DNA from: Amoebophrya sp. A120
Lineage: Eukaryota; Protista; Dinoflagellata
Direction of reading: 5' to 3'
Length of the DNA: 64,000 nucleotides
Assembly: GCA_905178155.1 (NCBI GenBank)
Contig: CAJINV010000001.1
Span: 6,419,860-6,483,859, forward strand
The position numbers were made by a program, and so were the translations under genes. The notes under the pieces were generated by a model. That model had not been told where the DNA came from. It was given only the letters and a program-made list of their open reading frames with translations, and ran no database searches. Shown here piece after piece: positions 1,688-59,519 of this stretch (within the stretch, counting starts at the first letter, position 1; each line of letters opens with the position of its first letter).

Positions 1688-4264
<2,577 letters not shown>

Positions 4265-31798: not shown

Positions 31799-34700
31799 AT
31801 GACCGCCCCAATTTCTGCTCGTCGTTCCAGCAACATGTTGCTACGCACTTTCGTGAGTGTAGCAGCAACTCAGCTGCTCACCATTGCTCCGACACCCAGC
31901 GCCGCGACGAAATATCACAGGAAAAAGTGTTAACGTTTGCGGAATTTGTGATGCGGCAATGCATTACAAAACGTGCCCAAATTTGTCATGCATAGCATGC
32001 ATACTAGGCTAGATTTGTAATACATGGCTGCAATCTGTGAAAACCGTAAACGTTGACATTTTTTCTTGTGATACGAAAATGATTCCGATCATGCTTCCTG
32101 CAAAGAAGGTGACCTGCCCCGAAATCGAAGTCGGGAATTTTTGCGGTGGGACGAGTCGGGAGCAAACTCCGACCTATGCCGCTTACCAGAGCGACCAAAG
32201 TACAGCCGCATCTCCTTATGGAGGACACAGCCCAGGAGGAAGTTTTGGATTCAATGTCGGCAACATGTCGCCCAACGGCGCAGGAGCTGCAGGAAGTCCG
32301 TCGAACTTTCAGTTTACGGCTGGCGGCGCAGTCAGTCCTTCCTGGCAGATCGGCGTCAAGTCAATGCTCGCGCGCGGCGGCAGCGCGCCTCCCGTAGTGC
32401 AGCGCGGCAGATCGGCGGGCGAGGTCGCGTTTACTGGCGCAAACAGTCAGCAGCAAGGAAGTGCTGCGGCGCGCTCTGGTTCGGTGCCGTTGCTGAATTG
32501 CTGTGGAGGCGGGGGGAACAACAGGGTGTATAAACGCCCGGCTGTGCCAAGTGTTGAACCCACGGCGAGGGCGCAGAGCATGTCAGACATGCCAAAGCAG
32601 ATGCTGCACTACATGAAAGATCAGTACTACAAGACCTCGTTCGGACGCGAGAACCCCATCACAGATTACGTCGATTTTACCAACAGCGTCTTCCTCGGCC
32701 GCGGCACGTCCGCGGTGGTGGTATCCGGCACCCTGAAACGGACCGGCGCACCGGTCGCCGTGAAGCGGTTTCCGAAGCGCAAGGACAAGAACAGTTTTGT
32801 CACGTGGACCGACTACTTGCAGGGAGAGCGCAGGTTCGAGATCGACCGGGCCCGGGACGAGTGCGAGTGGGCGCAAAAGATACAGGAGGTCGCCGGAAAA
32901 ACCAGGTTGTACAAGGGTATTACCTTCACGATTTTTCTGTTTCGTTAATAACAGGTCTTCCAATTGTAAGTACGTCTACTACTTCTCCATGTACTGACCT
33001 TTACAACCTGTACAGCACAAGCTCAAGCATGCACTTACAGATGCGTGCCAGATCTGTGCCCCCTTTGCTTCTAAATGTGATAGAGATAGTGATTATACCA
33101 TGCAGGGTGAAGTTTTGCAGGACGGTGCACTGGTTTGTATCTTTCTTGTTTTCGCTTTCGGTGATTCATAAAAAAATCTATAACCGCGCAAACGATCTTC
33201 AGTTTCAACCTGAAAAGATCCAAAAATCATTTTCCGGGGGCGTCACCCCGGGAAATAAATTTTAGATTTTTTTATGTAAGAATGTAGTGAAAAATCAATT
33301 TGATATGGTGGGACAAACCTTCACCCTTTCCTCATTTTATAAGTGAACCACTACCCTTTGCATTACTATTAATTTTTATAATTATGATAATTGCAATTCT
33401 GCATTCGGTCTGGTGGCAGCTCCATTTCTTCCGCTTTCGTCCTCGTTTTTATCCGTTCACCTTCGTCGATCTCGATAGCAAGAGAAGAAATTGCTATTCA
33501 TTTTGCATCGTTGTGTTCTCGTTTCGTCATCGGTTTTTTTTCGTCACAGCCATCGAATCGTTGAACGGGACGGAGATGGCGCGAAACGGATTGGATGAAG
33601 GCGATGATGGGCAACCGCACCTGAAAGATGCTTGAGGTTTTGTTTTTGATGAGAAAGCACTTATTTTCATTTTGACCGCAAGGCGAATCGAGCCGAAAGA
33701 CACGCACTGAAATCAAATTGAAGCTGAAGACGAAAAGTGAAAAAGAAAATGAAAAACAAAAAGCAAAATGAAAAATAGTACGATGCCGAACAGACGCAAG
33801 GCAGTCACAGGCTGGCCGTATCTGTCGAGCGTGTCGAAAACCTTCACCGCTCCGCCCACATCCGCCGTGTTCTCCATCGTTGTTCATTTTGCTGTGGAAG
33901 CTGCCTGTTGGATTTTTGTAGTCAGCCTTGCTGCACTTGGCCAAAGTGTCGGCTTTTGTTTTGGGTCGGAACTAAGAACCAGCTAGCACCTGTGGTTCAC
34001 ATCTTCGGAGTCTTACTCTTAATCGTTTTTGTTTTTCCACCTTCGTGCTCAGCTCCAAAGTAAAAGTTTAAGGCATTGTCGAGTTTCAATTTTAGCACAG
34101 AGAAAATCTAGAAAGTAGAAGCAGTTTTTTTGTCATCGTCTTATCGAAAGTCAAAGTCTAAGTCGAGAGTTATTCTGGTTTACCTCGTGCTCGTGGGTCG
34201 TGGTCGGAGTGTCGTCAGTTCGTTGTGGGAAAGTAGATCATGAGTTGCTCGCAGGATATCGGGATGGGGTCGCGGCCGTGAGTTGTAGAGTTGTATCGTG
34301 GTCGTGCTTTTTGTTTTCGGTCTTATTTGCTCGCTCGCGTTAGGACCTTGACCTTGAGCTTGACCTTCACCTTGACCTTCGGCCTCGACATCGAACAGCG
34401 CGCACTAGTACGGGCCCAGAATTAGAAATAGCACTACAGTACTAGCAGCAGTCTATCTTTTCTGTTTTTCATTTTCTTCTTCTCACCCTGACAACTGAGG
34501 ATGAGTTTCATACATCCGCGAGTCTAGCTCTAGACTTTTAGTTCGATCACAGATTTTGATTTACGTTTACGTTTAGACCTGCAAAAGCGTTTACAGTTTT
34601 AACCCAAGAAAAAGCAAAGTAAAAACATCATGCCGCCCTCTCCGCAGTATGGCGAGGATGTGCTGTCAACTTCTGGGGCGAGGTTTGCGCATCTCCAGAA

Positions 34701-37700
34701 GCTGCTTGTTTTCTATCATCCTACTGCTCCGCAATCCGCCGTCGAAGTTGGGATCGAAGTTGGGTCGAAGGTCGGGAAGGGACAACCTGGAAAACCAAAA
34801 ACGAAAACGAGCAGAGACGGTGACAAGGCTGCAGGATCAGAAAGCGAAGATGCGGCAGTTCCGAAGAAGGACGCGTTGCGAAAACGGTACGACGTGTGGA
34901 TCAACGAAAGTCCCGCGTTGCGGTGGGAGGACTTCGCTCGGATTCAGTGCAAAAAATTTGGAGCACCGTATTCCCGCGAAGAAGAAAACCAAAGCCAGGG
35001 CGAAGGCCTACTCTCTCAGCGCGTAGGCCCGGATGCGGAACAACAACAATCACAGCAACAAAAACAAGCACCTACTGGCACTGCTGCAAATGTTTCTTCT
35101 TTTGGCGCAGCGATGAGCCCGTCGGTGCAGATCGCCGCCCAATCATCGCGAGACAACTATCTGCGAAAGCTGCAAGACGACCGGCCCAAGGAGCACCTGT
35201 GGTACACTTTGGGAAAAAGCGGCGGCACGGCGCGAGCGCGGAACAAGACGGTGCAAATCACCCGCGACGCGAGCGCGCACAGTCGCCACACGAAGACGAC
35301 CCAAGGTGCCAAACTGCGGGTCGTGCATGGAAAAGCAAAGCCATCTTCTTCAAATACGCGAGCACTGTGTCCGCGACGGAAGAAGCAGGTCGTGGCTCAG
35401 CGGCGACGTGGAGATCTCGGGCCACTGGATGAGGAAGACGACCTGTTGGAAGACGACAACCCGAATCCGCCACCACGAAAAGATCCGGACGAGATGACGG
35501 ACTGTTTGACCGAAATTTCTGAAACGGACACGTCGTGCATCGAGTCCAGCAGTGACGAAGGCGAGGACAACAGCATTCAGACTGATGGGGATACAAGGCT
35601 GCACAACAAGCGGAGCGCTTTGTTTTCCGATGGTGTTCGGATCGCGGCGGGTGGATGGTCGGAAGACAAAGCGAAGAAAACCGCCATCAAAGAAGAAAAA
35701 GCAAAGGTGACCGAGGATGGGAACGATCGCAAAGAGGCTTCGAGAGCGGAGTTGCGGTTTTTCGACATCGCGCGGATCTCCGGCCGTGCCCGCATGATGT
35801 CGCTTCTCGTCTCTACCGGCGTGGTTGCTGATGATCGAGAACCGCGTCCATCCAAAAAAAAAAATGATACAAACGAGTCGCAGGAAACAACAGGCTCCGG
35901 GAAGACAGCAACTTCTTCAACATCTTCATCCGCAAGAGCGAAGCTCGGCTTCGCAGGGCGGGCAGCTGCAATGAAGCTGGATCTGGTGAGCAGTGGGTCT
36001 GACGTCGATGATGAACCTGTGTCGCAGATGGACTTGGACATCGGCGGTTCGCTCGCAGTTATTCCCGAAGATGAGGAGGGCGTCTTTCTCGACCCGAGTA
36101 CCGGGTTGGAGAAAAATGCAGACGGGTTTCGCAGCGTGACGAAGGACCGGATCGCGAAAATGAAAACCAAAGGAGCCAACAACAAGCAGGGCAGCTCGAG
36201 TTCCTCCGGATCCGGTCCACTGAAGCTGGACCCTGTCACGGGGTTGCCGCTGTCTTCCACGGGAAAACGGCCGCGAAGCAACACTATTGAAACGTTGCTA
36301 CCGCCATTAGGTACTTGTGCTTCTATCTTCAGCCTCTTCCTGTTTTTGGATTTGCATTTGATCTACCACTAAGTCGAACTCTAGCAAGCAACGCGCGCAA
36401 GTATCGTCTAAGATCGACGCTGACACTTTTGCGCATGACAGATTGGGTTTTCAACTTTATGCTTTTCGAAAGCGACTTGCTTTCGGTTTTGAATTTGATT
36501 TTGAAATACATAAAGTTGAATCAAACCCATCGAGCTTTAGATTTTGTTTTTTGAAAAGCAAAAATGTGAAGATGAAAACGACATCGGTTTCGACTTTGAC
36601 GCTGCAACGGCTTTTCAAAAACAAAACAAAAACAGAAGAAGACGAACACGAACCCACTAGCAGCCTGTTTGCTGGAAAGAGCGGAGCTGCATCTGCGGGG
36701 CAGGTGCAGACCCGCAGCGTGTTCATGTTGAATCCGGAGAATCTCGCGCGGGCGGATGCAGCGTCGGGCTTAGGCGGTAGCTTCGGGTCTTCTTCATCCT
36801 CGCGAGCTGCGGGGGAAGATCTGCAGGCGACTATGAGCGACATGTTCCGCAATGCCCGGGAAACAACTAGCATCTTCGGCGACGCGGTGACGATGGACGA
36901 CACGGCGTTGAAGTCTGCGGGCCCGACCGGAGAACTGACAAAAAGCGGGTACCAGTATGGGCCGGGGGTCAAAGAAGATCTCGGACAAAAGGAAAAAAGA
37001 CCAAGAATCGCGATCAGGTGCAGTCCCGATGCGACTCCATACGACGAGATCAAAGCCATGAATTGTTTCGCGACTTTGTTCAAGAGCGACTTCCGCGACC
37101 CGATGATCGTGTACAGCCACGACGTCGCTCTGCCGACAATCTCCACGGCATCGGGCGCGGAAAGTTTTCTGCAGGACCTGTACGAGGCTGCTTTCTCGGT
37201 GGGTTTTCCGTTGCCGGGAATGTGGTCGAAACTTTGCAGGCTGGGAGGGAAAATTTTGAAGTTTCGCCCGTCGTTAGTAGTTACTAGTGACAGTGGGTCG
37301 GACGTGAAGAAGGGGGTGAAGATGATGATGCAGTGGTGCGAGGCGCAGCGGAAGTACGACGCGGAGGAAAAAGATGGCGAGCCGCATTGGACAGTGTCGT
37401 GGTTGCAGTGTCAGCTCCACTTGGCGCACATCATAGGCGGAACAATCACCAGCGTAGCGTCGAAGTTGTTCAGTCTGGACTATCGCAAAAGCGTTGCCGC
37501 GGTTTCCAAAACTGTGAACTTGTGGACTGCACCGAGGAGAACAGGGAACGACCGCGGAGGGAGAGGAAAGAAAACAATTGAGGAGCTGAAGAAGGAGTTG
37601 TACGCCGTCGATGCAGAGCAGCAAAAACTCCTGGACGGGATGACAGCGATTGACCGAGAAATCTGGCACAGCGAGCGGATTCAGAGCGACCCGGTCTTGC

Positions 37701-40700
37701 AAGAAAAGCAGGCGAAGCTGGAAGAAAAAGTGGAGAAAAAGAAAAACCCGGTGAAACGAGTGAAGTCCTTCGTCCGCACCCGGTGGCTGAGTATCGGAAA
37801 GTGCATCAAAGGTCTTTGGACACAGCAGGAGGAAATCACAGCACGCATCCTGGACCGGACTGATAAGGATTTGCAGGATAAGAACCGAAAATTTTTGCAG
37901 CGGGCGAAGAAGGCGATGCTGGCGCCGCTGTGGTGGTCGGGTCTGCGGATTCTCCACCTGCTGCTCACCGAAATTGACCGGGTTGCTGGTGTTGTCATGC
38001 ATTCGACCAGCAAGGAGATGGACGGCGCCTCGGTGGAAGCGTTCGCCAAACATCTTCCCAGATGCCACTCCGTCGACTTGTGCCAGCGTGTCGGGGAGTT
38101 TTTGGTTACGCTCGGTGGGCTGGTCTATCGCGGCCTCGAAACAGTCGGTCTTGCGGGTCCTTTAGTCATTTTGTTTTATACATTGGCTAAAGAGCTCGAC
38201 ATCCGCCACCGCCCGCTCCGCTCGTGGCCGTACCGACTTGCGTTTTTATTTTCTGCGGACCAGAGCGAACGGCTGAAGACCATTCAGGACCTGTTGAAGG
38301 ATTGCGAGAGCGAAGCTGGTAGGAAGGACCTGCCGCTGGAGGTTCGGGATTTGTATCGGCTTTTCCATCTGGAGCTGAAAATGGTTGCGGAATCGCTCAA
38401 GAAGAAGAAGAACATCGGGCGGAGCCGGGCCTTCGTTCGAAACTTAGCGCCGATTATTCGGGCGTTTTTGGCTTCGAGCCAAATCGCCGAATCCCTGAGC
38501 TCCACTACCAGCTGGATCAAGCGAGAAGCTGGCGGTTTAATCGGAATGCTTCTTGCTTCTGCGCGTTTGTTTACGCGCCGCGGAGCAGGGCGGGACGTCG
38601 ACTTCGAACAGTATCTCTTCGTTGAGGACAACGCCCGATGCCAGAAAGCAACGATGCAAATCCGAAAGGAGTTGCTAACCCACGGGATACACGGCGCGCC
38701 GCAGATCAGTGATAGGTCGGATCACTTTCTGCGGAACCCAATAAACCCGCAACTCACGCCGGAAGCGATTGTTGCGGATTTTTTTGAAGTTTTGAACCGG
38801 CCGGACTGCCCGGAGGCGCCGAAGTTGGCCACAGGCGACAAAGCAAAAGGGAAAACTAGGGAAAGGCAGCAGTACGGCGCAGCGCCGCTGAGCATGAAAC
38901 TCTTTCAGTTTTCGGTTATGGACATCATCGGCATCCCCAAGTACGACAAAAACAACAACGCGAGAAAAGGAGCGGGCGCATCAAACTACTTCGTGTTGGA
39001 GAAATTGAAGAAAGACGCGGTGCTGTGCGAGGTGAACATCGTGCAAGGCGGGATGAAGGAGAAGGGTCACGAGGTGAGAATGGAAATTGACCTCGACGCC
39101 CAGTGCTGGTTCTCGGACGCTATTGGCGCGCGGAAAGAAGACCATCCCTCCAAGGCAGCAAAAAAAAACTTCAAAAACAAAAACCCGGAACTGCGCCCGG
39201 TGGTACTTGATGGCCAAAACGTGCTGAAGTACTTTCACATCGACACCAAGCAGCGGCGGAAGTACTTCCAGGTTCGACAGACGGAGGAATCTTATGTGGA
39301 GTTTTATTTTCAGCACCGGGTGCGGGCCGATGGAACACCGGATCCAAATCCGACGGCCTATCCGGGAAACGAAGCAGACCAGATTTGGGCTCGGGGTGAG
39401 CTGGTCCGCATGGAGTGGAATGACGCTTGTTTGTCGAAGGAAGTCGAAGAAACCAACATCGAGGAGAAAAAGTTGAAGAAAGCGTTGAAGCAGGACCGGC
39501 TGGATTCTCCCACGCGGCGAACGCGAGAATCAAAGTGGAACCTCGTACCGCTGCGGACCCGCGTCCCCGAGCTTGCAGTGAGTGGTCTAATCGGTCGCGG
39601 ATACGCGATCTACCAAATCGAGTCGAAGACGTGGTGGGGCCGGTTGAAGAATGCAGTTCCTTTTTCTCGGGGTAGTGTGCCAGCTGCTAGCGCCGCAGCT
39701 GTTGCTCCGCCGCAGGTTGCGCCGGACAACAATCCGAAACCCCAAGCGAAGCAAACCAAAAAACAAAAGAAAGCAGCTGCAGCAGGCGACAGTAAATCTG
39801 CAGGCGCGAGTGCGCGCGCGGGCGCACAGGTGGGCGCGGGCGTGCGCGCGCACACGCACACGGGCGTGCAGGCGCACGCAGGTACAGGCGCGGGCGCGCA
39901 GGCAGGCGCGGGTGCACGTGCAGGCGCGGGCGCGCAGGTGGGCGCGCAGGCGGGCGCGCAGGCGCACGTGCACGCGGACCCGCACGTGCACGTGCACGCG
40001 CAGGCGGGTGCGCAGGCGCATGTGCACGCGCGGGCGAGTGCGCGTGCGGACGCGGGCGCGCGCGCGCACGAGGCGGGTGCGAAAATAGTCGGACATGCTG
40101 GTGCGGAATTGCAAGCGGAAGTAGTTTCGGAGAATAAAAGTGGTGGCGACGGAAAAGTGAAGAAAACGCCAAACGGTGGCGTTTATCGGGATCGGTACTT
40201 CGGGGGGAAGACCAGAGAGGCGCTGGTGAAAAACATGATCGAGTACGAAAAGGGGTCGAGCGAGTCGTACATCGCTCCGGCGGGTGAGGATGTGCTAGTT
40301 GCTTCCACGACGCTAACGGCGTACCTGAAGGACAACAAGCTATTTGCAAAAAAACAAAAACGCAATGACAACATCGAAATGAATTCCGACGACGAAAGTA
40401 CCTACGAGTCGTCGGGAACCGACTCGGATTTCGACGAGTCTGACAGTTCTGACGAAGACTAAATGATGGCAGGGTGAGACGCTGAAGGCAGTGCTAGCGC
40501 TGCGCTTCTGATGTAAAACCCGCATGCGCTAGTAGGTCGAGCACTGCTGCAGCGTAGTAGTAAATTTTGTTTGAGCACTCACCTCCTTCTCTTTGTTTTG
40601 AAATTAGTTTCATTTTTCTACCTCGCGTTAAGATCCAGCATGAAGCGAATCTGTCATGCAAAATAAACGAAAACCAAAATTAAAGCGTGTACATTTTTAC

Positions 40701-43700
40701 TTAATGTTGCTTGAAATAGGTGGACAGAAGCTCCATGCAATAAGCTATCCACCGAGCAAAAGACGAGAGCTTCTTATTATTTATCAACGAGGCGCAACTA
40801 GGCGAATTTGCATCGCAAACCAATAAAATTATGCACAATAAATCGCCGAACTCGAGATGCAAAAGTTGACTGCAGTACTGCTAATTGCATCTGTTTTATA
40901 TGTACGTGTATGATTTTTGGCTCTAGAGTTTTGATCTTTTGATAGTTTTAGAATAGGAAAAAGCTAAAAAGTGCATCGAGATTTGTCATGCTAGAGCTAG
41001 AATCTTGAAACAAAATTCCTACCTGTGCGAAGATTTCTGGCGTCGTTTGGAGGTGTTTGAGCTCCGTTTCGCCGCTTTCTCGTCCTGCAGATCGAGGCAG
41101 ATTCGTGTGTTCCAAAGGGCAAAATAGATGAGATCGAGGCTGTCCAAGACTGCAGCGAACCGCTTCTGTTGTTGTTTTTTGATGAATGTGGGTCCTTTAC
41201 CGAGCTGAAAACTGATGACGTTCGACGCCAATCGAAGGCGATTTTGTATGATGAAACGACAACCAAAAAACAATGATTCAAAAACTAAATTGTACGCAAA
41301 GGGAGGTCGATCACTTCCAAAGGGACAGCCAACACATCACGAAGTGGCCAGGATCGCTTTGGAAGTGAAGGGCCTCCCTTTGCGTACAATTTAATTTTTG
41401 AATCATCATTTTTGGGATCGTTTTCCAACGTCCAACTTCGACTCATTTTAAGTTGTAAAGCCATCTCGTTTTGATTTTTTTCATTCTCATTCACCACCAA
41501 AAATATCATAGTAGGAGAAGAAAACCAGGTAGAAAATAAGCTAAGACCAAGTAAGTTGCGACCTATTTTCCATCTCTGTCAACCGGAGTTTCGTGTAAAA
41601 AAAGTTGCGCATCGACGTGCTTTTTGTGTAAAAAAATACTTATTTTCCATTGAATCCACCTCGAAAATGCCGCTTCCGACCGCAGCGGAAGTGAGCGACT
41701 TTGTCTCGTTACTGGATGCGGGAGAGGCTGGAAAGCCCGAGGCCGAGGCCTTTATGGCTCGGCTCTCGAAGCTTCCGTTCGACAGCAAAAATCCGAAATC
41801 CGTCGAAATTCCTCTGACCGAAGTGCACGTGTTGCGGAGCGGGCGCCACCCGCAAAACCGCGTTACAAACCCCGACAACCTGAAAACGTTGAAACACGCG
41901 ATGAAAAACAAGGGCAAAAAAGGAGGATATGAAGGAATGAAAGTCGGTACGTGCAAAATGTTTTTTCGTTTCACATACATTTTTCGTTCAAAAATATTAG
42001 CGCTCACTGTCATCCTATCGCGCAAATGTCTCGTTCAAAACTAGAGCTGCGTTGAGAATTTGTATTGCGCGTTTTGTTTTCTTTGCATCATTTAGATCGA
42101 TAGTCTCTATGTCAGTCCTCATGTAGATGTACTTGCACATGCACAGGATAACTGAAACCACACCCGCACGCAAACAAGAATAAAACTAAAACCCAATCCT
42201 AATACCAGTTCTCTTTGCTGTCGATTACGGCAACACCGGAAAGTGCGAGTACGTGTGCGCCTTCCTGCACGGCGGACATACGATCCTCGCCCTGTACGAA
42301 GAGGGGTGGTTCGATTTCGGGATCAGTGTGATTTTACTCGACCCGGAAGTGGACCAGTACGAGGCTACCAGAGAAACACGCGCTACTGCAAAAAAAAATG
42401 GAAATGCAGCAAGATCAGGAGCACTTCCTTATAGTTTGACTTCGTTATCGTTTTGCACAAAATCAAAATTAAAACTTGTTATGCAAAAAGTGAAAAGGAA
42501 ATCTGTAATGCAAAAGATTTGCCACGCAGAAAATTTGTAATGCAGAAAAAATGAAACGCCATGCAAAGCGTCTTGCTCTTGTGCCATTTCTTTTTGCAGT
42601 AGCAGCTGTTTCATTCCATAGCAGAATTAATCTCGCAGTTCGTGCTCCTGAAAAACGACGAACCCGTCGGAGTGGCTCCGTCCTGGCTGGAAGTCATCAA
42701 GCGCACCGCGCGGGTGCGTTTCCTTCTTTCATTTTAGATGAAGCTCTTAGTCGTTGCAGCTCCAACTCCATTCGTTCCTGCGTCTCCAGCTTCAGCTCGA
42801 TCTTCAAAAGTTATCCTTTCTGATTTCCATTCTGCAATGCAAGTTGTAATGCTCCTTCATGTTTGAGTGTGGTTTTCGTTTTTCATTTACTTTTTCGCGA
42901 TCTAATTTTCGAATGAAAAAATGAAAATCAAAATATCAGAACGACGAAGCCTATGCGGAACACGAGGAAAACCAAAAAGCCAAGGGCAGAGAGCCCCGCC
43001 CCATGGAGGAATGGACCGAGGGCCAGGTGGGAAAAGAGTGGAAGGGGCAGGTGAAGACTTACAAGCAAACGGCGTGCGCAATGGTGAAGAAGGGTTTGTT
43101 ATGCATCGAAAGCGAAAATATAGCACCAGCAGGTGGGGACAAAAGCAAAACCAAAAGTGAAGGGCATGTCTTTTTTTCATCCGCATGACACAAAAATAAA
43201 AAAACCAAGAAAGCAGATGCTTGTCATACTGAGAAATTTTTTGATCTTGGTTGGAGCCTGTCATGCAACTGCAACTGCTAGTGGTGCAATATTTTTGAAA
43301 ATGCATGACCGTGCCACGAATGGACCATGTTCGGAATCGCGATCAGCACCCAAGTGCCGCGGCCGCGGGAGAAGGACGAGCACATGACGCTGTTCAGCTT
43401 CGCGCACGTATTTTTTTACTTCGTTATCGTTTCAAAATCAAAAATCAAATTCAAAAGCAAAAGTAGAGCTACGCTGTGGATTAGCATTACAAAATGAAAA
43501 CATTTTTCAAAAAATTTTTTCGCTCAGAGTCAGACTTTCGCCTCCCGATCCGAATCCATTTCGAAAAAAATAAAAACTAAAAACAGAACAAGCTGATGCG
43601 CGTGGTCATCTACGACGAAGAAACTCCGGTGCGGAGTTTGCGGCTCGATATGCACTTTGCGATTTGGACCACATTGACCTACGCTTGCGGGAAGCCGGAG

Positions 43701-46700
43701 GACCAGGTCAATCTGCAGGAGGATGATTTGAAGCGGCTGCGGAGTCTGATCACATCCAACGTGTCGGCGTTGAAGTTTGACGACTTGAGCGAGCAGGCGA
43801 AGACGAAACGGGACCCCGCGGCGATGGAACAACTGACTCCGATCTCGCGGAAGGAAACCAGAAACAAAATCATCCAGTTGTTCCGCGCAATGAAGACGTT
43901 GAAAAACTTCTACGGTAGTTTGAAGTCTTTGACTTTGGGATGGACAAGGCCGATCCGAAATCGTACGAGTTGAAGTACAACGGAAACTGGATCATCCCGC
44001 GGGACTACACCAAAACGCAGCAAGAAGTTGCGGACGAAAAGTTTCTGCTGAACGAGTTGCCGAAGCTGATGACCCAGATCCACATGTTCACCGCCAACCG
44101 CTGCTCCGCGTTGACCCTCGCCGTGTGTCTGGCGGACAAGGATTTCGACGAAACGCCCAGCCTCGCGAAGTTCATGTACGTCTGCGACCGCGAGGAGAAC
44201 AGCTACTACGTCGAGAAGCTGACCGGTGCGGAACCGAAAGACGCGAAGGACCGGATCCAGAAAGCCGTGGACCAGGACCTGCTCTTGTTGCCGCTGTACG
44301 CGAAGCATGACTGCTACGCTTTGGACGAAACCGTGGATGTGCGATCCAACTGGGGGTCGAAGCCCGGTAAGAAGACTTCCAACAAAAAGGGAAAGAAGGA
44401 CGCGGAAGCGGAGGTGAAAGTGCAGGTACTACTCCTAACTTAGTTGTTTTCTTTTCAGTTCGAATCTGACGGAACATATTTAGTTTTTCACTTTTTTGCT
44501 CGCATAGCAAAATGCTTCTTGATTTGAAAATGAAAATGAGTTCACGTGTGCGCGCGCGCACGTGCGCGTGCGTGCACGTGGGTGCGCGTGCACATGCGTG
44601 CGTGCGTACACGTGCGCGCGCGCCCACCTGCGTGCGTGCGTACACACGCATGCATGCGCGCGCGCGCCCACGTGCGCGTGCATGTGTGCGCGCGCACGTG
44701 TGCACACGCGCGTACATGCGTGCGCGCGCACACATGCACACGTGCGTGTGCACGCGCGCCCGTGCGTGCACGCGCGCGTGCGTGTGCGCGCCCGTGTATG
44801 CGCGCGCACGTGCGCATGCGCGTGTTGGTGTTCGTTTTCATTTTCAAGTCACAAAGAACTGCGCTATGCGAAAAAGAAAAAGTGAAAACCAGAATTGTTC
44901 TGCTTTTGTCTGACTCGTTAATAGTTTTTTAGTTTTAGTTTTACTTTTACACACATTTTTATTTGCAAACTTGTGATGCAAAAAAACAGAACTGAACTTA
45001 CGACGTTGCCATGTGACTACGCATGACAAACATCGAAAAAAAAACCAGGTCAAAGAAGGCCAGGGTGCCGAAGAGGAGGAAACCGAGGATCAGAAAAAGT
45101 CCCGCGAAAAACGTGAGAACGTGCTGAAGAGCGATCCGAAGAAGGCCAGCCAGGAGTTCTTGAAGCAGAAGCCCTTCCGATCCCCGCTGTGGTGCTCCGC
45201 CGTGCCCAGTGAGTTCGCGTCGCAGACGGAGGGGGAGATGCAGAGGAACGCCGAACGTGTCCCCCGCCTGCGTATCCTCGTGAAACCCGACGCAAACATG
45301 TACAAACCCCCGACCAACGACGGAGAGGAGTTTCAGCTGGACACGCTGTTTTACTATCCCCAGAAGAAGAAGCTCGGCGGTGACTGGGACTTTCAGGACG
45401 ACCTCACCCACACGTTGTCGCTCTCGTAAGATTTGACTTTTTGAAAAAAATTGACATTGACTTTTTTCACAGCATCACAAACGCATAAAAAGCACAAACA
45501 GATCTGAAATGGCACCGCGTGACAGATGCAACATGACACCAACACTCTTTTCAATCCATTTCGATGCGAGCACTATTAGCATCTTCATTGCCGCTCCACC
45601 GCATGACAAACGAGAATCACAAACAATGCATCACAGCAGGCGCGTGAACTATTTTTGGAAACCGGCCGACAACAATAAAGTCGACCGGTTGACCATGATC
45701 TCGTGGAAGACCTGCGAAGTCCCCTTCTGGGGAAAGGATGGGAAGAAGACGTCGATTAAGTTTCAAGTCCCGGTGGAGGCGTCGGTGAAAAGCAGTGGAA
45801 ACCCAAAGAAGGCGAAGCAGAGCAACATCTTGTGCTGAACCCCAAGAGACTACGGGTATGGAGTCGGAGACGGACGGATACGAAAATCAAAATTAATAAA
45901 CAGGTAAGCGCGCCTACTCATACACCTACCTCTACTTTAGATTTAGTTTAAGTCTTTGGCTTCTTGTTCTTTTAGTTTTAGAAACCACGCGAAGCTTTGA
46001 AACATCTTGCGCGCGACTTCTCGTCGCGTTCAAAAATTTTTGGTTTTGTAGCGGCTTCTTTTCGGTCGTGAAGTAGACACTTAGACTCAAGCCCCGTTGT
46101 TAGTCAAATCCCAATCCCAAAAGCAGCACCTACTCCCACTGACTCCCAGTCCCACACCATCACAAATTGAAAAAAATACGCAGGTAGTCGCAACAGCACT
46201 ACGGCCATGAAGGTACACAGCAACGGTCTTGCTCTTCGTGGTTTCAAGACTCTTCTTCTCGACATGAGCATCAAGAAAAGCTACCACAAAAACGAACTGC
46301 TCTTCCACGACGAATGCAAGTGATCGACTATTTTTCCTACCTGCTGCGGCTGCGCGGTGTTGGTCAAGTTCTTCTTTTTGGAAGCAAAGGCGCGGAGGGG
46401 CGATGGCGGTTGATCGGTGGGAAATGCCACGCAACCTAGGAGGAGAAGTTTCCAACTTTCACAAAGCTGCAGCCTACCGGTTTACTTTCGATCTAGATCT
46501 AGAAGCAAAAAAAAACATGAAGTTCTTTTGTCTTGCACAGTGACAATTCAGATTGCGTTTCGATTTTTTACGTTCGCGTTAGATTTCAGTTTAAAGCTTG
46601 AATCTCAGGAAGCAAAGCCTTCAAAGTAAAAACTACTTACGACTGGTCGAGCCCCAGATCGCCGACCTAGATTGTGACTTACGTTTACGCTTACCGCTAC

Positions 46701-49700
46701 TGTCAGTGTAGCTCGACTTCATCATTAGTTTTAACTTTTAAGTTTGTGTCTGTCACCGACTCAGTAATAGTCTTCAGCTACAGTTTAAATTTCAAAATCT
46801 AAATCATCATCCTCATCAACAAACAGCTTGTTTGTCAGCAGCGGCATGCTTGGCCTTTTGGTCAAAGCGTGGCCGTGTGCTTTTTCGCTTTATTGAAAAA
46901 ACAAAAAACAAAGCTACAACCTAATCTTCGTTTCCACCTCCGGGTGTAGTCATGCGACGGCTGCTACTTGCCAATCATCAGGCCCTCGGGTCGTACTAGT
47001 ACAAGTACTAGATCTAGAACTAATTCTAAGACAGGCAAAACCAAAATTAAAATTTTCAGGAAGGCGCTAATTTTACCCCAAGCGGAAGAGGAAAGGTTGA
47101 ACAAAATCAAAAAGCGAGCGCGAGAAAGAAATCCGCTGCACCTCTTCCAGTATCTTCCACTACTAGAACTAGGAGTTTCGAACTCGATGCAACTTGTCGA
47201 CTTTCGCTTTCATTCTTTGCGACGGCAAGATTGAAGTAGAGGCGCATCTTCACCAATTGCGATGCGGATGCTTTTTTCTTCGACGAGGTGGAGGCTCGAA
47301 GATTTTGACTATGAGACTCTCCTTCTCAACCTTTAAATTTTGAATGTCGACCTGTACCTGTAGACTCTCGAAACCGAAAAAACAAGAGCCAAAAAATGGG
47401 CCGCGTTCTCACGATGCAATGAGAACGACGCGAAGATGTTCGCGCTCGTGATCGCCTGGCAGTTTCTGAAAAAAGCTGAAACTTAGAGGGAGATGGATGG
47501 ATGAAGAATGTGAAATCGCAAAGGAGATCAGACCGTGTCTAGATCCAAAAAAAAGAAAGCCGAAGTTCCGCCAAAGACTGGAAGTTGATCGCCTGGATCC
47601 AAAGCAGGCGACCGCTCAGCTCCGAGGGGTCTAGAAGATCAAGCGAAAAAAAAAAAACGTGGATCGCCTGCTTCCACCTACAAGCTTGGAGTTTTTGGAT
47701 CTCCTTGCACTGTGCGTTTTGAATTTTTCCTCATAGTTTTTTCTTTTTCATTTCAAACTGTCAGGGACCAATGTACTTCTACTTGTGCCTGTAGGTCGTT
47801 ATCGCTTTCGTCTGAGTTTACTCTAGCTTCTCGCTTCCCTCCACAGCAAAGAAAGTAGTTGCCCTTCCGTCTGAGTTTACTTTTTTTCTTTTCCCTCGAA
47901 CCTGATCTCGGGTAGCGTAACTTCGATTCCGATCTCTACGTTTACTTTCTTTTTTTGCAAAAGCAAAAAAACAACATCAAAATGTCGGACCAGAAAGCGA
48001 AGCTGGTGAAGCTGGGCCCGAAGTGTGCCGTCGATGATGACGAGGATGGTCCGCCGCCGGGAGGGGTGCGATTTAGAACCATACACGGGGCAACACGGGC
48101 GGAAGTGGAAGAATTACACAAAGACGAAATCAACAAATGGGTCCCCGCGAAGAACGGACACATGAAGTGCATTATGTTCTTGGATGATGTTGACGAAGAT
48201 GTCCCCGGATGCACCCAGGCGGAGATGTGGGTACTAATGCTGGCGCTTTTGTTTTTTTGTTTTGCATTGAGAGGGATTTTGCGTTTTCGAGTCGAAGTCT
48301 AAATTTCAAACCTAGCAGTGGGATCAAACCGACAAGGAGGAGAACTTCGTGGACAACCTTTTTGGGATGTTACGGGGCCAGACCAAGCGGAGAACCGGGC
48401 CAGAACAAGTGGAAGTGGATGCGTCCGAGATGACGAAACAGGAGCAGCCGGAAATCATCAACCTGATTTTCAACATGGCGGAATCTGATGATAACGCGGC
48501 CTGGGCGAAGGCTTTTTTGGTGGACGAGGCGACCGGTGGTGCTTACGGATCAGCTTCTTCTTCTTCTTCGACTGGTTCCGGAATTACTCCTGGTGGAGCT
48601 TCTTCTTCTTCGCGCCCGAACAACGAACAGATGGAAGAAAAGACGAACGACGACGATGCGAGCGAGGAGATGGAGGTGGAGGCGGAGAGCACCCCGACCA
48701 CCAAGGCCGGGAAAAAGAAGAAGAAGCAAAAGACCAAGAAGTAGACATCTTTCACCTGTTCAGCGCGTCGAGCTCGAACGGAAAAGCGTCGGAATCGGCA
48801 CAACAAGTGCTTCTTCTACATCTTCAGCTTCTAACTCTACTGCTAAAACAAGAAGCTCAGACTTTTGATGACGCGAATGGCAACGAGAAACAAGCACAAG
48901 TAGATGAAAAAAAAACGACAACGAAATGCAGCCGGAGCTGTGAAATTTTTTATGGGTGTGTTCGGCGCTCCCTTCGGTGTCTTTCTCCTTCGTTGATGGG
49001 TGTCATTGGTCTGACGATGGTTCATCGCGTCCTACGACATTGCCCCGACCACTCTGACCTTCCACTGAAGCCGGCGCAAAAATGGAATGCAACAGTCGTC
49101 AGGACCGACGTCGTTATATAAATTCAGGGGCGTGGGCATCCTTCTAAACACCCACTTTTCGCATGCCAAAGCTCAACATCAAGATCAAAATCGTATTGAG
49201 AAAAAGTGGCAAATCGGTTCAAAAAAAATAGAAGTGAAGACGTTCACGAACAAAGATAATCATGCCAATTTTCATAGTTATAAAAATTGATAGTATTTCA
49301 AAGGGTAGTGGTTCACTTATAAAATGAGGAAAGCTGAAGGTTTGTCCCACCATACAATTTGACCTATTCCAGTAGGACATTCGTACAAATTTAAATTATG
49401 TGTGTGTGTGTGTGTGTGTGTGTGGTCGTCGATGCGCATATTCCAATAACCGCCAGCGTGCTGTATAATGTTATGCTCGACGCTAGTACGGAGGATCGAT
49501 GCTTAAACCAAAATTTCACTGGCTGCGCCCATCACGCACGACTGCACTTTTCAAAGCACCACTGGACTCATCTTCCTCACAAGGTATTGGACGGAACTTC
49601 GCGCATTGTTTGCGAATGAACATCGGCGAGGTGGAGATGCGACCGCACACCGATCCGGACACCGGTTTGCTGAATCCGCAGTGGCGGGAACTGGGCCATT

Positions 49701-52013
49701 TCGAGATGCACGCTTTGTCCCCCCTTCCGAAAAACGTCGACGACGAGCTGTATCTGATCTACCAGTTGGCGGGTACCCCCGTGGTCGACTACCTCCGCCA
49801 GCAAACGTACCAGAGCAATAGCAGCGGGCTCGGGTTGGTGCGCGAGCCGGAGATCTATGCATTGGAAATTTTCCGTATGTGTACAAAATGCATGACAAAT
49901 TTCCCTAACATGGAGTGTCCAACTTGTCATGCTGAGGACCAAGATTGAAGAGAAGGAAAGTTTTGTCATACATAGCATTTGTACGTCGTGTACGGGAAAT
50001 TTACTGTGGATAAGACCATCCCGATGATGCTGCAACAGCTGGTCTTCGCGGTATCGTTCCTTCGCGAGGAGGTAAAAGCGGTGCATCATGACTTGAAAGC
50101 CGAAAACGTTCTGTGGGACGATATGCATTGCAAAAGCATCGCACTAGTTTGATTTGCATGACAAACCTTTGGGAGAACGAAAACGGAATTTCTCATGCAG
50201 ATTCAATTAAGAGCCTGGTGATCTGTCATGCAAGATTGCGAGTACTACAAGTGCAATACTTTTGCCCAGGATAGAAAAGACCGAGAAGCGAATCGTCCTG
50301 ATCGACTTCGGCTCCATGTCCGCACTTCTGTCCGAGGACGAAGTCCGCGAACACCAGCAAGCCTGCTCGATCCGCATGGTGCCGCGCACCGCGGAGGACG
50401 ACGCGTTGGACGAGGATTTGATGAACGCCGGGGGCTTTGGCGACGGGGGGATCATGTCCAGTTGCGATTGCTGCACATCAACCAGCGGAGTTGGTGGTGC
50501 TTCTTCTAAACGCGAAGGACAGCATGGATTTCGCAACATGGAGATGGACCTCGACGAGGTGCGGTCCATCAGCTACCAGCAACAGCAAGAACAGTCCTCC
50601 CTCTTCTGCTGCCCCACGACCGGCAGCTCTTGCTGCGGCCCCTCGGCGAAAGATAGGTTTATCATCGATGGGCAGGATGTGGGGAGAACACACAAGTCGG
50701 CCATGGTTGTGAGGGACCACGGACGGCGGCTCGATCGAACCGACGGCGACAGAAAACGGCAAATTATCCGTGGCCTCGGGCACACCCCGCACTCGATTCA
50801 GCAGTGGACCCCCGGATTCGCGCCGATAGAAAAGGAGGAAGGAACCAGTTTGCAGGCGATGCAGACCGCGAGCTCCGTGGACATTTTCGCGTTGGCGACA
50901 CTGATGGGGCAAATTTTACTGGACGGAACGAACCTGATCATGGCACACTACATGCAATTCGACGGGTTGACCAGGAGCGCGACGGCAAGGTTAGCTGCTG
51001 GCGGGGAGAACGCGCCTGCCCGATCCTCTACCTCCGCGTCTACTTTTTCCGGCGCGCGGGTGACGCCACAGGGTCAGCCGGTACAACGGGGCCAGCCACG
51101 CGAACTTATCATTCAGGACCAACAGCAGCAGCCGGAGGTGCAAGTCATCAACTTGACACCCTGCTGCCCGAAAGACAGCCAAGGATTTTGCAGTCCATTG
51201 TGCTGCATGACGCCAACCATGACGATCGACTGCACGGAGTGCTGTGGAATGTCTGCAGAGAAGCAGCTCGAGCTGTACGGAAACGGCAACAAACCGGTGG
51301 GGTCGCGGTTCCTGGCGGACGGACACAAGACCAAAAAACCGTACAAAATCTTCTGGGCCGAACTGTTCGAAGATATCGCGGACTCGGATATAGGTCTCAA
51401 GAAGCTGTACATCACGCCGCGCGTGAAGACTCGACAGGGCGCCGGTCCGCACATCCCGCCGGGAAAAAGCAACGCCGTACTGCAGGCATTGGTGGGGACG
51501 CTGCCGTCACAGTGGACGGATGCCTTCTTCATCTTTTGGCCGCGGTTGTTTTTGAGTCACGAAACGCGCGTGAACGCGTTCACGATCATGGCGATGTCGG
51601 TCTTCCAGGAGATCGATCCAAATACCGGACGCTGGCGAGCAGTAGCACAGGGCGCCGCGGGAAGTTCTTCAACACCCGCCGGTGGTGCTGCTGCTGGGCA
51701 GTTGTTCACAAAAGTTGTTGGGGACCGACGCAGCGGCCCCATGGGCGGTGCAAGTGGACCTGTGCAGCAGGGTTTTCTCGGCGCAGCGGCCGCGGCTGGT
51801 GGAATGAACAGTCGTGGCGCTGTTCAGGTACAAGAAATCGATCCGCGGGACCCGAACCGCGGGGCGAAGTACCAGCAATTTATCATGACCATGGAAAACG
51901 ATCCCAATGGTCCCGTAGGAAACTGCAACTGGCTAACGCGCTTGCTCTACAGCTGTTGTTACTCAACCGAAGCAACAGGAAACACGCAGGTGCAGTGGCA
52001 ACAGAATCAGTGA
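31799..52013 (+). CDS. Protein kinase with signal-peptide-like N-terminus, split by a 16.7-kb transposon-containing intron; exons ~31799-31912, 32079-32916, 49584-49852, 50015-50121, 50279-52013
   Basis: N-lobe LGRGTSAVV, VAVK and alphaC E at ~32690-32880; C-lobe HHDLKAEN, IDFG, TPGFAPIE, VDIFALA after 49584; GT(32917)-AG(49583) phase-1 join reads RLYKG-IGRNF. Confidence 0.8.
31913..32073. mobile_element. IR introner in kinase gene; TSD CGAAA; ends related to 12707-12916
   Basis: TATCACAGGAAAAAGTGTTAACGTTTGCGG vs right revcomp TATCACAAGAAAAAATGTCAACGTTTACGG; CGAAA at 31908-31912 and 32074-32078; removal gives SAATK-MIP. Confidence 0.92.
33304..33392 (+). repeat. Left TIR of giant hAT element
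   Basis: TATGGTGGGACAAACCTTCACCCTTTCCTCATTTTATAAGTGAACCACTACCCTTTG... matches revcomp of 49267-49354 with few differences. Confidence 0.95.
34630..40462 (+). CDS. hAT-like DDE transposase, ~1,835 aa; exons 34630-36310 and 36636-40462
   Basis: Ordered motifs CSPDAT (D1), VTSDSGSDVKKG (D2), CQLHLAH (CxxH), VRTRWLS (TRW.S), ASSQIAESLSS (catalytic E region); phase-1 GT-AG intron 36311-36635 fuses the 580-aa and 1339-aa ORFs. Confidence 0.8.
39805..40082 (+). repeat. GC-rich, largely purine/pyrimidine-alternating repeat read in frame as an AGAQ/AHVH tract of the transposase
   Basis: GCGCGAGTGCGCGCGCGGGCGCACAGGTGGGCGCG... with no stop or frameshift. Confidence 0.85.
41667..45838 (+). CDS. Multi-exon cargo gene of the giant element with ParB/Srx-like N-terminus; apparent frameshift near 43915 (possible pseudogene)
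   Basis: Exons ~41667-41946, 42209-42363, 42639-42713, 42940-~43092, ~43312-43407, 43587-44425, 45049-45425, 45640-45838; IPLTEVHV...QNR...LKHAM...AFLHGGHTILAL pattern recalls the ParB-N core. Confidence 0.55.
44460..44918. repeat. Foldback element in cargo-gene intron: imperfect ~80-bp IRs around a ~280-bp alternating (GC/GT/AC) tract
   Basis: TTTTCACTTTTTTGCTCGCATAGC...TTGAAAATGAAAA vs TTTTCATTTTCAAG...GCTATGCGAAAAAGAAAAAGTGAAAA; core 44543-44824 is CGTGTGCGCGCGCGCACGTG... Confidence 0.8.
47982..48744 (+). CDS. Small acidic cargo protein with C-terminal poly-Lys (NLS-like) tail; exons 47982-48230 and 48316-48744
   Basis: Phase-0 GT-AG intron 48231-48315 joins QAEMW-QWDQTDKEENFVDNL; ends GKKKKKQKTKK*. 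Confidence 0.65.
49267..49354 (-). repeat. Right TIR of giant hAT element
   Basis: ...CAAAGGGTAGTGGTTCACTTATAAAATGAGGAAAGCTGAAGGTTTGTCCCACCATA followed by TSD CAATTTGA. Confidence 0.95.
49399..49424. repeat. (TG)n microsatellite
   Basis: Uninterrupted TG dinucleotide run in the kinase intron. Confidence 0.9.
49856..50012. mobile_element. IR introner in kinase gene; degenerate TSD AGATC/AGACC
   Basis: TATGCATTGGAAATTTTCCGTA vs right revcomp TATCCACAGTAAATTTCCCGTA; removal joins VREPE-(T/I)IPMMLQQ. Confidence 0.8.
50122..50273. mobile_element. IR introner between kinase HxDLKxxN and DFG motifs; degenerate TSD
   Basis: TATGCATTGCAAAAGCATCGCACT vs right revcomp TATCCTGGGCAAAAGTATTGCACT; removal joins ENVLW to TEKRIVLIDFG. 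Confidence 0.78.
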
Positions 52014-53078
52014 AGGTGGGGAAAGAGATACCGATACCATCTGAGAGGTGGAGGTGGTGGGCGGCTAGGATGGAATAAAGACCAAGCTACAGCTAGCTCC
52101 TCCTACTTAATGAATATGTATTTCAACGACCAATTTTTGTATTCATGTTCTTACTTGTTTTGGTCTACCAAATAAATGTTGAAGAAGTCTGGTTTATTTT
52201 CAGTCTGCAATCTGAATCAGTTGTTTCTCTTTCTGACGTTCACGTTGCGTCTGGTGACTTGTTTTTCACGACCTGGCGACGTTTCTCTTGAGAAAATATA
52301 TGCACCGTGCGCAGTGCATGTGCAGTGTCAATGAGAGCGGAGCGCGCAGAAATTTTCCTAATGATTAGTGTGTGTTTTTACACTCGCCAAACTTCCTACT
52401 TGCTATAGTCTTTTCTTTTTGCGAAAACTCAAACCTATGCCGGTGAACGAGAATAAAGTTGTCTGTGTTGAAGTTGTCTAGAGGTAAAAAGAAGAAATTG
52501 AAATTGGCCTAGTTGACGAGGTCCCCTACCGCACATGAACAAAGTAGTTTCGGCTTTTCGGTCAAAAATAAATTGCCGCAGATTGGTGCTACTCCGATGC
52601 ACATGCAGCCTTGTGTCTCCCTGCTCTCCACAAGGCGTCATTGGAATTCGGTAGTTTTTGTCGGGCGGCCTCTCATCTAACTACGAACCGACTAGCAGGA
52701 AAGTAAGGATCTTGATCTTGCAGGAGATTATGATGGCGAAAGAAGTAGCTGATAATTGAAACTGCAGCTTCTCGCATGCGTAGGCTTCGAGCGAAACATC
52801 ATCATGAGAGCGAAGGTTATACCTCTGTCTTCATAGCAGACGAGTGAGCATTATGAGCATCTCCTTTACTGCTTATGGATAGATGAGTATGGCACCCATC
52901 AGGTCCTCTATTGGAACGAAGTCGCTGGCCAACGCAGCATTGTGTTGGTTGATGCGGCCGCAATCTCCCGTAACTAGAACAATACCAAGCCACTGAACTA
53001 CCACATTGACATTCTACCTTCAGACACGAGTCGTAAACAGTGATAGGAACGCAAAAAGCACACATACCCTACACCATC

Positions 53079-54190
53079 ATGCTGCTCCAGTCGGGCGCCT
53101 CTAAAGAGGCACTGCGCACGCTGATCGTGGGAGGCCGGGGTGGTATCGGGACGGCGTATGGAAAGTTCTTCAACCCTGCGAACACGGTTGTCACCGCGTC
53201 AACACCGAAAAAAGTCGAGGAGCTGAAGGCCAAAAAGTTTGCCAACGCGCTTCAGTTGGACTTCAACCAAGAAGCACACTTCAAGAACTTGTCAACGGAG
53301 CTGAAAAACATGGATTTCGTTCCCGACCTTGTCATCAACTGCACGGGCGTACTCGGCCTGCCACACACGGACCCAGCGAAAGCGGAAAAAGGCGAGATCG
53401 TTCGGCCAGAATCTTCCGTGAAAAAGATAACGCCCGACATTCTGCAGAGGACGTTTCTCACCAACGTCTTTGCCAACGCATTGTTGCTGCGGGAACTCGC
53501 CTCGGGCATTTGGAGCAAAGCGCCGAAGGACCACCCGCTTCTTTTCGCGTCCTACTCCGCCCGGGTGGGCAGTATTGCGGCAAACGAATTGGGTGGGTGG
53601 TACAGTTACCGGGCCTCTATCAAATGCAAATATGTCTGGGTCTGGAAGAATGCGCGATTTGTCATGCTGCTTTTCCATGACCCATGGCATGGGGTTTGGA
53701 ATGCAGGACCTAGCATGACAGTTTCTGTGCGATCTCTCTCATGCCTATCCTGCATGAGAAAGTCCCTCCCGGCTTGGTCAAAACTGAACGACTTTTGGTA
53801 ATCATGCAACACAGATTTTTGCATGCTGCAGATTTAGCATGAAAAGTTGCAATGTTCCAGACCCAGACATTTTTACATTTGATAGCCTCGAAAGCGGCGC
53901 AAAACCAGTTGATCAAGACATCCAGCTTAGAGTTCAAGCGGTCACACCCGAAAGCGTGCTTGCTTGTCGTGCACCCGGGGACCGTGGAGACGACTTTGAG
54001 CACGCCTTTTGTTGGAAACGCGAAGAAGCAAACGCTCCAGTCAGAGGTCCTGGATGACGTGGAGAAGCTGTCGGGCTACTTTACACCCGACGTCGCCGTG
54101 CAACTGATGTGGAATAATGTTTTGAGCAAGGTCGGGCCGGAAGACACAGGGAAATTTCTCGACTACGCGGGCCAAGAAATTCCGTGGTAG
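53079..54190 (+). CDS. Short-chain dehydrogenase/reductase (C-factor/CsgA-like); exons 53079-53617 and 53890-54190
   Basis: GGRGGIG, INCTG, SARVGSI, GGWYSYRA|SKAA (YxxxK split by introner), VHPGTVET, GKFLDYAGQEIPW. Confidence 0.92.
53618..53884. mobile_element. IR introner inside the SDR catalytic YxxxK motif; TSD GCCTC
   Basis: TATCAAATGCAAATATGTCTGGGTCTGGAA vs right revcomp TATCAAATGTAAAAATGTCTGGGTCTGGAA; GCCTC at 53613-53617 and 53885-53889. Confidence 0.95.
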
Positions 54191-59108: not shown

Positions 59109-59261
59109 TTGTGGAAGTGCGAAGGCAAACTCGTTGTGCTACGAGTTTGGCCTCTGAAGGAATATCAATATGAATATTTCAATCGATAAGTTGTACAGCG
59201 CTATAATAAAATATGTTGACAGTTCCAGGTTGACAGTCGCTGGAACATGACGAAAACCTTA

Positions 59262-59519
59262 GAGCGAGGTAACAAATGTGCCGTTAACTCGCGCCCGCGA
59301 GTTAAGCCTCCGGCCGGCCGGCCGGGCGGTTAGCTCGCAGTTTGAGCCGGTCTCAACTTCTTAACCGACCCAATTCTCTCGGTTTGAGACCGAAGACTCT
59401 GAACCGGTCTCAACTTCTCTCGGTTTGAGACCGGCTCAAACCGCGAGCTAACCGCCCGGCCGGCCGGCCGGAGGCTTAACTCGCGGGCGCGAGTTAACGG
59501 CACATTTGTTACCTCACTC
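59262..59519. mobile_element. MITE, PIF/Harbinger (Tourist)-like, ~95-bp near-perfect TIRs, TTA TSD
   Basis: GAGCGAGGTAACAAATGTGCCGTTAACTCGCGCCC... mirrored at the right end; TTA at 59259-59261 and 59520-59522. Confidence 0.88.

Follow-up and report, generated by a model that had tools for sequence, protein, structure and literature searches.

A 16-kb transposon with a predicted, very divergent hAT-like transposase among introners of Amoebophrya sp. A120

The subject of this study is a 64,000 nucleotide (nt) stretch of the genome of Amoebophrya sp. A120 (assembly GCA_905178155.1, contig CAJINV010000001.1, positions 6,419,860-6,483,859, forward strand), which we refer to as the window. It carries a transposon of 16,051 bp (33304-49354), termed the 16-kb element, together with eight small elements that resemble the introners described from this organism. 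All coordinates are window positions, and the counts of motifs, ends and BLAST matches given below cover the 64-kb window. The original prediction, made from the letters alone, held that the 16-kb element shares its termini and an internal motif, TGT[CGA]ATGC, with the introners, and that it might be their autonomous partner or a relative. Much of this interpretation has stood: the 16-kb element is a real transposon with terminal inverted repeats (TIRs) and a target-site duplication (TSD), it carries an open reading frame (ORF) with predicted hAT-like features, and the motif that it shares with the introners is specific. The autonomous partnership, however, is not borne out.

The 16-kb element and its transposase frame

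The left end of the 16-kb element, TATGGTGGG, begins at 33304 and the right end, CCCACCATA, finishes at 49354. The element opens with TATGGTGGGACAAACC and closes with the reverse complement of this sequence, and its termini read directly as TATGG...CCATA, as first reported. The inverted ends extend for approximately 90 bp (25 nt matching at 92% and 68 nt matching at 93%, with a one-base offset), and a perfect 8-bp duplication, CAATTTGA, flanks them. The first 20 nt of the element match nothing in the window besides its two ends when up to three mismatches are allowed. Because of these long inverted ends, the perfect duplication and the uniqueness of the ends in the window, we conclude that the 16-kb element is a genuine TIR transposon whose insertion duplicated 8 bp of target. 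Its main features are as follows (strands are given where they were assigned).

33296-33303: left copy of the 8-bp TSD, CAATTTGA, read directly
33304-33393, plus strand: left TIR, from an inverted-repeat search
34603-36372, plus strand: upstream open frame of 589 amino acids (aa) from stop to stop, of low complexity and with no family match
36572-40462, plus strand: predicted hAT-like transposase gene of the DDE (Asp, Asp, Glu) type, uninterrupted from first Met to stop; frame open from 36362, 1366 aa from stop to stop
37028-37030, 37289-37291 and 38489-38491, plus strand: candidate catalytic residues D223, D310 and E710, respectively, from conservation in relatives
49266-49354, minus strand: right TIR, from an inverted-repeat search
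49355-49362: right copy of the 8-bp TSD, CAATTTGA, identical to the left copy

The 589-aa frame may represent a gene of its own or, alternatively, belong to the transposase gene as an upstream exon. A single RNA contig (479 nt, depth 5.35) spans 49134-49612, covering DNA on the inner side of the element's right end as well as its flank, and therefore some transcription crosses the right junction. A (TG)n microsatellite (49400-49425) is located just beyond this end.

The protein encoded by the 1366-aa ORF escapes standard domain libraries. Pfam searches with nine ORFs of the 16-kb element, at expect (E) values up to 0.1, gave nothing significant and one unrelated weak match, and a word-indexed protein search with ORF residues 200-900, covering only sequences of near length, gave no match. 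An exhaustive HMMER scan of 1.84 billion representatives yielded five relatives, with E-values from 1.4e-54 to 3.8e-6. Three are from Amoebophrya sp. AT5.2 (EukProt) and the other two from Logan contigs, and Pfam recognizes no domain in any of the five. A metagenome scan with the single ORF protein produced 589 pattern matches, none of which was confirmed.

In the alignment with these five relatives, D223 (in PDATPY), D310 (in TSDSGSD), the CxxH motif at residues 350-353 and E710 (in SQxAES) are kept in all relatives that cover them, and TRW at residues 473-475 is retained in four of the five. We take this series (D, D, CxxH, (T)RW and a C-terminal E in an S..E..S context) to be equivalent to the conserved blocks of hAT transposases. 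An AlphaFold2 model built from six sequences (mean predicted local distance difference test score, pLDDT, 54.5) has the predicted order b-b-b-a-b-a-b-a, which is that of RNase H, followed by a long helical insertion, and in this model D223 and D310 directly follow strands 1 and 4.

Structure comparisons with this model point consistently to the transposase Hermes. The ten best rows of a Foldseek search against the PDB are all Hermes, with probabilities of up to 0.99 and E-values from 3e-3 to 3e-2. When the Foldseek candidates were realigned with VIA-align, six Hermes entries gave Z scores of 8.6-9.8 over 312-329 aligned residues, with root-mean-square deviations (rmsd) of 5.2-6.8, and the next entry scored 5.4; the best match (Z 9.8) has 324 aligned residues at an rmsd of 5.2. 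In an independent scan of 48,161 representative chains, the sole chain with Z of at least 8 was again Hermes (8.3, 341 aligned residues, rmsd 6.6), and the next chain reached 6.0. The nearest named clusters in a language-model atlas are nearly all hAT, DUF659 or ZBED, with scores (0.80-0.83) that are weak and serve only as a lead. Given the fold matches, the conserved residues and the 8-bp duplication, it is quite likely that the 16-kb element belongs to the hAT superfamily, as a very divergent branch of restricted lineage, in agreement with the label of a hAT-like transposase applied to it at the outset.

Eight introners and the removal of three of them from RNA

Introners of A120 have been described as carrying inverted repeats that consist of TAT, seven variable nucleotides and at least three As, with direct repeats of 3-5 nt; they have non-canonical splice borders and a length of about 240 nt, and a hairpin brings the ends of the intron together (text of Farhat et al., 2021; PMC7789003). 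We scanned the window for small elements with TA...TA ends that agree at 13 or more of 20 terminal positions and are flanked by an exact 5-bp repeat. Six candidates were returned, five of which are introners. Three further elements bring the set to eight.

12707-12916: introner with TATCGTGAGAAAAA... ends; 5-bp TSD GTCAG; two strict motif copies
26090-26355: introner; 5-bp TSD TGGTC; right end CCATA; five motif copies; related to 53618-53884
26422-26703: introner; 5-bp TSD AGACG; four motif copies in a single orientation, about 31-48 nt apart
31913-32073: introner; 5-bp TSD CGAAA; three motif copies
49856-50012, plus strand: introner in a kinase gene; two motif copies; RNA contigs skip 49855-50016
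50122-50273, plus strand: introner in that kinase gene, separating its HxDLK motif from DFG; two strict motif copies; RNA contigs skip 50121-50277
53618-53884, plus strand: introner; 5-bp TSD GCCTC; two strict motif copies; RNA contigs skip 272 nt
62544-62778: probable introner, read by eye; starts TATCCCACGGAAAAA; flanks AGCCG/AGTCG; one motif copy

The sixth candidate of the scan is a weak 800-bp stretch (46994-47793) inside the 16-kb element, with an exact 5-bp repeat (GGTCG), a TAC start, inverted ends that match at 13 of 20 positions, and without the motif. The match may be due to chance, or the stretch may be an element from another family that is nested in the larger one.

All introner ends share the pattern TAT, C or G, about six variable bases and AAAAA (signature TAT-N7-AAAAA). 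Their termini are TATC or TATG at one side and GATA or CATA at the other, just as they had been described, including the CCATA at 26355. The flanking 5-bp repeats are exact at five of the eight elements; at 49856-50012, 50122-50273 and 62544-62778 the flanking 5-mers match at three or four of five positions.

Contigs of run X3 were mapped on 34000-53990; runs X3-X6 are presumed to be RNA. Contig coverage over the 16-kb element is sparse, which we do not count as transcriptional silence. Raw RNA-seq runs X9-X11, which bear the same species label, placed 2, 0 and 0 reads on 20 kb with well-expressed genes and may derive from a different strain. The X3 contigs join 49854 to 50017 (162 nt skipped; one contig, depth 47.1), 50120 to 50278 (157 nt) and 53612 to 53885 (272 nt; 5 letters can be assigned to either flank). 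In every case the skipped stretch comprises the introner and 5 further nt; the borders read CT..AC, AT..AA and GC..TA, respectively. Thus, three of the eight introners are precisely removed from the RNA contigs. Two of these have diverged flanks (AGATC/AGACC and GACGA/GAAAA), and both are cut 1 nt before TAT and 4 nt after ATA; since the offset is fixed despite the divergence, the cut seems to be measured from the inverted ends and not from the repeat sequence.

The RNA of the 53618 introner folds better than all 200 of its shuffled versions (z -7.8), with inverted motif copies pairing inside a stem that is closed by the ends. In their ends, repeats and non-canonical borders (the last seen as RNA joints in three of eight), as well as in size and hairpin, the eight small elements fit the published description of A120-type introners. 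Two other systems were considered for comparison and set aside. The introner ends do not fit the nonconventional introns of Euglena type (N3-CDG ... CHG-N5-6, as given in the text of PMC12501133), and for Diplonema no such introns are reported in PMC10161547.

The shared motif and the interior of the 16-kb element

Matches to TGT[CGA]ATGC or its complement are strongly enriched in the window. There are 36, compared with a mean of 5.4 and a maximum of 12 in 200 shuffles that preserve dinucleotides, and the 16-kb element holds 15 (shuffle mean 1.1, maximum 4). No other non-simple 8-mer of the window is as strongly over-represented as one form of the motif, TGTCATGC/GCATGACA, with 19 occurrences and 2.2 expected. 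Every position listed for the motif in the original prediction proved to be a true match to within 1 nt. A wider consensus, aaTTTGT[CGA]ATGC, with the 11-nt core TTTGT[CGA]ATGC, is common to the introners and the 16-kb element.

The distribution of the motif is uneven. The eight introners, which total 1,739 nt, carry 21 copies and the 16-kb element carries 15. The remaining 46,210 nt carry none, where 3.9 would be expected; of these, 11.3 kb are ORF-poor (1.1 expected). It follows that random intergenic DNA does not have this motif as a property, the possibility that had been named as a challenge to the original prediction. Nor is the motif a general intron signal, since two canonical host introns (2904-3057 and 16201-16366) have neither motif copies nor inverted ends. 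These two are frame-consistent GT...AG introns in a malic-enzyme-like gene and a VPS13-like gene of more than 3,000 aa, and one has a branch site of TACTAAC type. Within introners, motif copies occur in both orientations, often 31-37 nt apart, and the first copy lies 33-43 nt from an end in five of the eight. Relative to the transcript, orientation is mixed in both the introners and the 16-kb element.

In the 16-kb element, the motif is concentrated away from the ends. One copy is found in the left 3.3 kb, one in the transposase ORF, 13 in the interior that follows it and none in the right 3.5 kb. The copies closest to the ends are 3,129 nt (left) and 3,726 nt (right) away from them, leaving these outer regions free of the motif, including the subterminal few hundred bases to which a transposase would be expected to bind, and the subterminal repeated k-mers of the element do not include it. 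The interior has two features that bear on the origin of these copies.

40463-45838, plus strand: interior with a spacer and about nine short exons, assigned by eye from ORFs and GT/AG sites; 13 of the 15 motif copies
42366-42620, plus strand: introner-like intron with inverted ends of about 49 nt, TACCAGAGAAACA... and ...TGTTTCATTCCATA; two motif copies 32 nt apart

None of the 13 interior copies falls in a putative exon: 11 are in five putative introns and two in the spacer behind the transposase ORF. One of the five introns, 42366-42620, has the appearance of an introner. Its right end reads ATTCCATA and so finishes in CCATA, and its two motif copies stand at a spacing also seen in introners. 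It interrupts an open frame, and by hand arithmetic removal of its length and 5 further nt would leave the frames on both sides in phase; its flanking 5-mers differ (GAGGC and GCAGA). A search of the 16-kb element for nested introners, with an end matrix and the signature TAT-N6-8-AAA, returned only the end at 42620 and scattered single matches, with no clean pairs. We consider it somewhat more probable than the contrary that the motif inside the 16-kb element stems from introner-derived introns in carried genes, an ancestry shown for one of the five introns. The presence of such introns in genes carried by a transposon would be unsurprising, given that introner elements account for 17% of the A120 assembly and that the same repeat organization is present in 15% of its canonical introns (text of PMC7789003).

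Arrays of aaTTTGT[CGA]ATGC are not mentioned in the searched passages of the text and supplement of PMC7789003, in which respect the window introners differ from those described, nor was the 8-mer found in a relevant context in the other literature searched; figures and the other dataset parts of PMC12130899 lay outside this search. As far as these searches go, the 11-nt internal motif is apparently new to print.

Several other features of the interior and its surroundings were recorded. The spacer between the transposase ORF and the next gene contains a hairpin (41236-41443) with 90-nt arms that are 78% complementary. A low-complexity block rich in GCGTGC/CACGTG (44492-44879) is located in a predicted intron and framed by 48-nt inverted repeats, and similar low-complexity DNA at 39815-40100 encodes an AGAQ/HVH repeat close to the C-terminal end of the predicted transposase. 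Exons 1 and 2 of the interior gene (41667-42368; …EIPLTEVHVLRSGRHPQNR… and …FLHGGHTILALYEEGW…) recall by eye a ParB or sulfiredoxin-type domain split by an intron; Pfam searches with the separate ORFs found nothing.

Relationship between the element and the introners

An autonomous partner should resemble the elements that it moves, and we compared the termini by means of a matrix built from 14 introner termini and applied to 20-mers. The terminal 20 nt of the 16-kb element score 7.4 bits, far below the 15.6-27.0 bits of the introner termini. Beyond the TAT start the likeness is weak: among the 818 TAT-starting 20-mers of the window, 33 (4%) fit the remaining positions as well as the end of the 16-kb element does, and the shared end features amount to TAT(G/C), one G and AAA. 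BLAST searches with the eight introners against the window found only the 26090 and 53618 introners matching each other, and nothing in the 16-kb element.

In our preferred reading, to which we assign a probability of about 0.6, the 16-kb element is a TIR transposon with a predicted, very divergent DDE transposase of the hAT superfamily that is likely not the mobilizer of the neighbouring introners. It is more likely a carrier of introner-derived introns than their driver. According to this reading, the 16-kb element would move by hAT-type cut-and-paste with a staggered 8-bp cut of the target, and the introners would be miniature elements mobilized by a different transposase that makes a 5-bp stagger. 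The motif arrays in the introners, with their spacing of about 32 nt and both orientations, might represent subterminal binding sites of that enzyme or a unit for building the hairpin. Motif-bearing stretches in the interior of the 16-kb element would then be introner-derived insertions into passenger genes, and the element itself a target of introners and not their source.

The comparison with Hermes (PDB 2bw3, 4d1q and 8edg) illustrates both the strength and the limits of the hAT assignment. Common to the two are an 8-bp duplication, inverted ends, a single large transposase whose predicted RNase H-like core is split by a helical domain, and the conserved D, D, E, CxxH and (T)RW positions; no strong structural match other than Hermes was obtained. 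The 16-kb element differs from typical hAT elements in its TATGG ends, its TIRs of about 90 bp and its extra multi-exon genes, and all relatives found for its ORF come from Amoebophrya-type data. Typical hAT elements are a few kilobases long.

Several observations weigh against our reading. With respect to the hAT assignment, neither the Pfam hAT models (Dimer_Tnp_hAT, PF05699, and hAT-like RNase H) nor a BED zinc finger is found in the 1366-aa ORF, and a sequence-profile search of the PDB with this ORF returned low-complexity noise and no Hermes. The structural model is of low confidence, as expressed by its pLDDT and by an alignment of six sequences. The usual terminal consensus of hAT elements is YARNG, and the TATGG of the 16-kb element has T, not a purine, at the third position. 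With respect to the interior, the exon-intron model was drawn by eye and the X3 RNA contigs barely cover the element. By eye, the other four motif-bearing predicted introns run from GT to AG, and TAT ends were not detected in them; inverted ends of introner type are seen in only one of the five. With respect to the separation from introners, the TAT(G/C) start and a run of As about 11-14 nt in are common to both, and only 89 of about 128,000 window 20-mers (0.07%) match the introner matrix as well as the end of the 16-kb element; this rank leaves room for a distant relationship of the ends.

Ac/Ds and similar elements carry subterminal repeats that are bound by the transposase. By analogy, the motif of the introners, which occurs in multiple copies of either orientation immediately interior to the inverted ends, could be a putative binding site; in the 16-kb element, by contrast, the motif is far from the ends. 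This analogy is one of the points in favour of a relationship at the level of the superfamily, in which introners would be miniature hAT elements with a 5-bp TSD moved by a sister transposase of the same divergent, lineage-specific clade, the 16-kb element would be a cousin with an 8-bp TSD, and the TAT start and motif would be ancestral. Such a relationship would explain the shared start, A-run and rank of the ends noted above, as well as the short motif arrays that fill the introners. It is also compatible with the description of hAT5, hAT6 and hAT7 families, which make 5-, 6- and 7-bp duplications (text of PMC12730594), so that TSD length separates enzymes and not superfamilies, and with the assignment of A120 introner families to the class 'TIR DNA / Unknown' by Gozashti et al. 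(PMC12130899, Dataset S2). A miniature element with a 5-bp TSD could thus still be a hAT element, although membership of the introners is hypothetical and the window contains no autonomous element with such a TSD. We regard this relationship as possible but unlikely, since the motif is not subterminal in the 16-kb element and the ends are weakly alike beyond TAT. In addition, three of the five relatives of the ORF are from AT5.2, whose introns are 99.98% canonical in the text of PMC7789003, a predicted figure and hence a weak point.

The direct partnership suggested by the original prediction, in which the transposase of the 16-kb element itself recognizes TAT ends and motif, moves the introners and thereby creates introns, is highly improbable. 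In its favour are the start and motif held in common, an ORF that looks intact and has candidate D, D and E residues, and the consideration that an enzyme like this one, invisible to Pfam, could have been overlooked. The difference in TSD length, 8 bp for the CAATTTGA duplication and 5 bp for the introner repeats, had been acknowledged from the start and is confirmed. Together with end similarity far below that among introners, a subterminal region devoid of the motif and the lack of any other sequence similarity, it speaks against such a partner, and the evidence in the window does not support the proposed link to intron creation. A different possibility is that TTTGT[CGA]ATGC is a cis-element of a host intron class, for example a unit that forms hairpins or binds a protein and so assists the cell in recognizing or excising these introns, with no connection to a transposase; the 16-kb element would then have the motif simply by virtue of such introns in its genes. 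Consistent with this idea, the motif of the 16-kb element occurs in predicted GT...AG introns and one inverted-repeat intron, inverted copies pair in the folded 53618 introner, and three introner splice points have a fixed offset from the inverted ends. We nevertheless judge it improbable, as mixed orientation relative to the transcript would be unexpected for an RNA signal that is strand-specific, the two canonical host introns have no motif, and the repetition at about 32 nt resembles the repeat unit of a mobile element.

The 16-kb element is set apart from published A120 introners by its 8-bp TSD, its length of 16 kb and the absence of a spliced form among the X3 contigs. Introners have already been described; the 16-kb element adds a very divergent new member to a known superfamily. 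Farhat et al. reported putative transposases only in A25 and none in A120, and read this as an argument against transposase-mediated mobilization (text of PMC7789003). An integrase-like type, 'family 38', has been described for A120 in PMC12130899. The window demonstrates that a transposase which looks intact, yet escapes standard domain libraries, is encoded in a genome with A120-type introners. The failure to find transposases in A120 may therefore reflect a limit of detection, which weakens the case against transposase-driven spread. The 11-nt motif marks introners and offers a possible handle for finding their true partner. As a more speculative extension, and one that we hold to be doubtful, TAT-type introners might be miniature hAT elements whose enzymes belong to this same Pfam-invisible, lineage-specific clade, with the 16-kb element as their 8-bp sister and TTTGT[CGA]ATGC as an ancestral DNA-binding site.

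Outside these elements, the window contains a near-perfect palindrome at 59261-59520, which starts with TAGAGCGAGGTAAC, is GC-rich with CCGG repeats, and has 96-nt arms that are 98% complementary and 68 nt apart. It lacks the motif, shows no clear target duplication, and could be a miniature element of another family.

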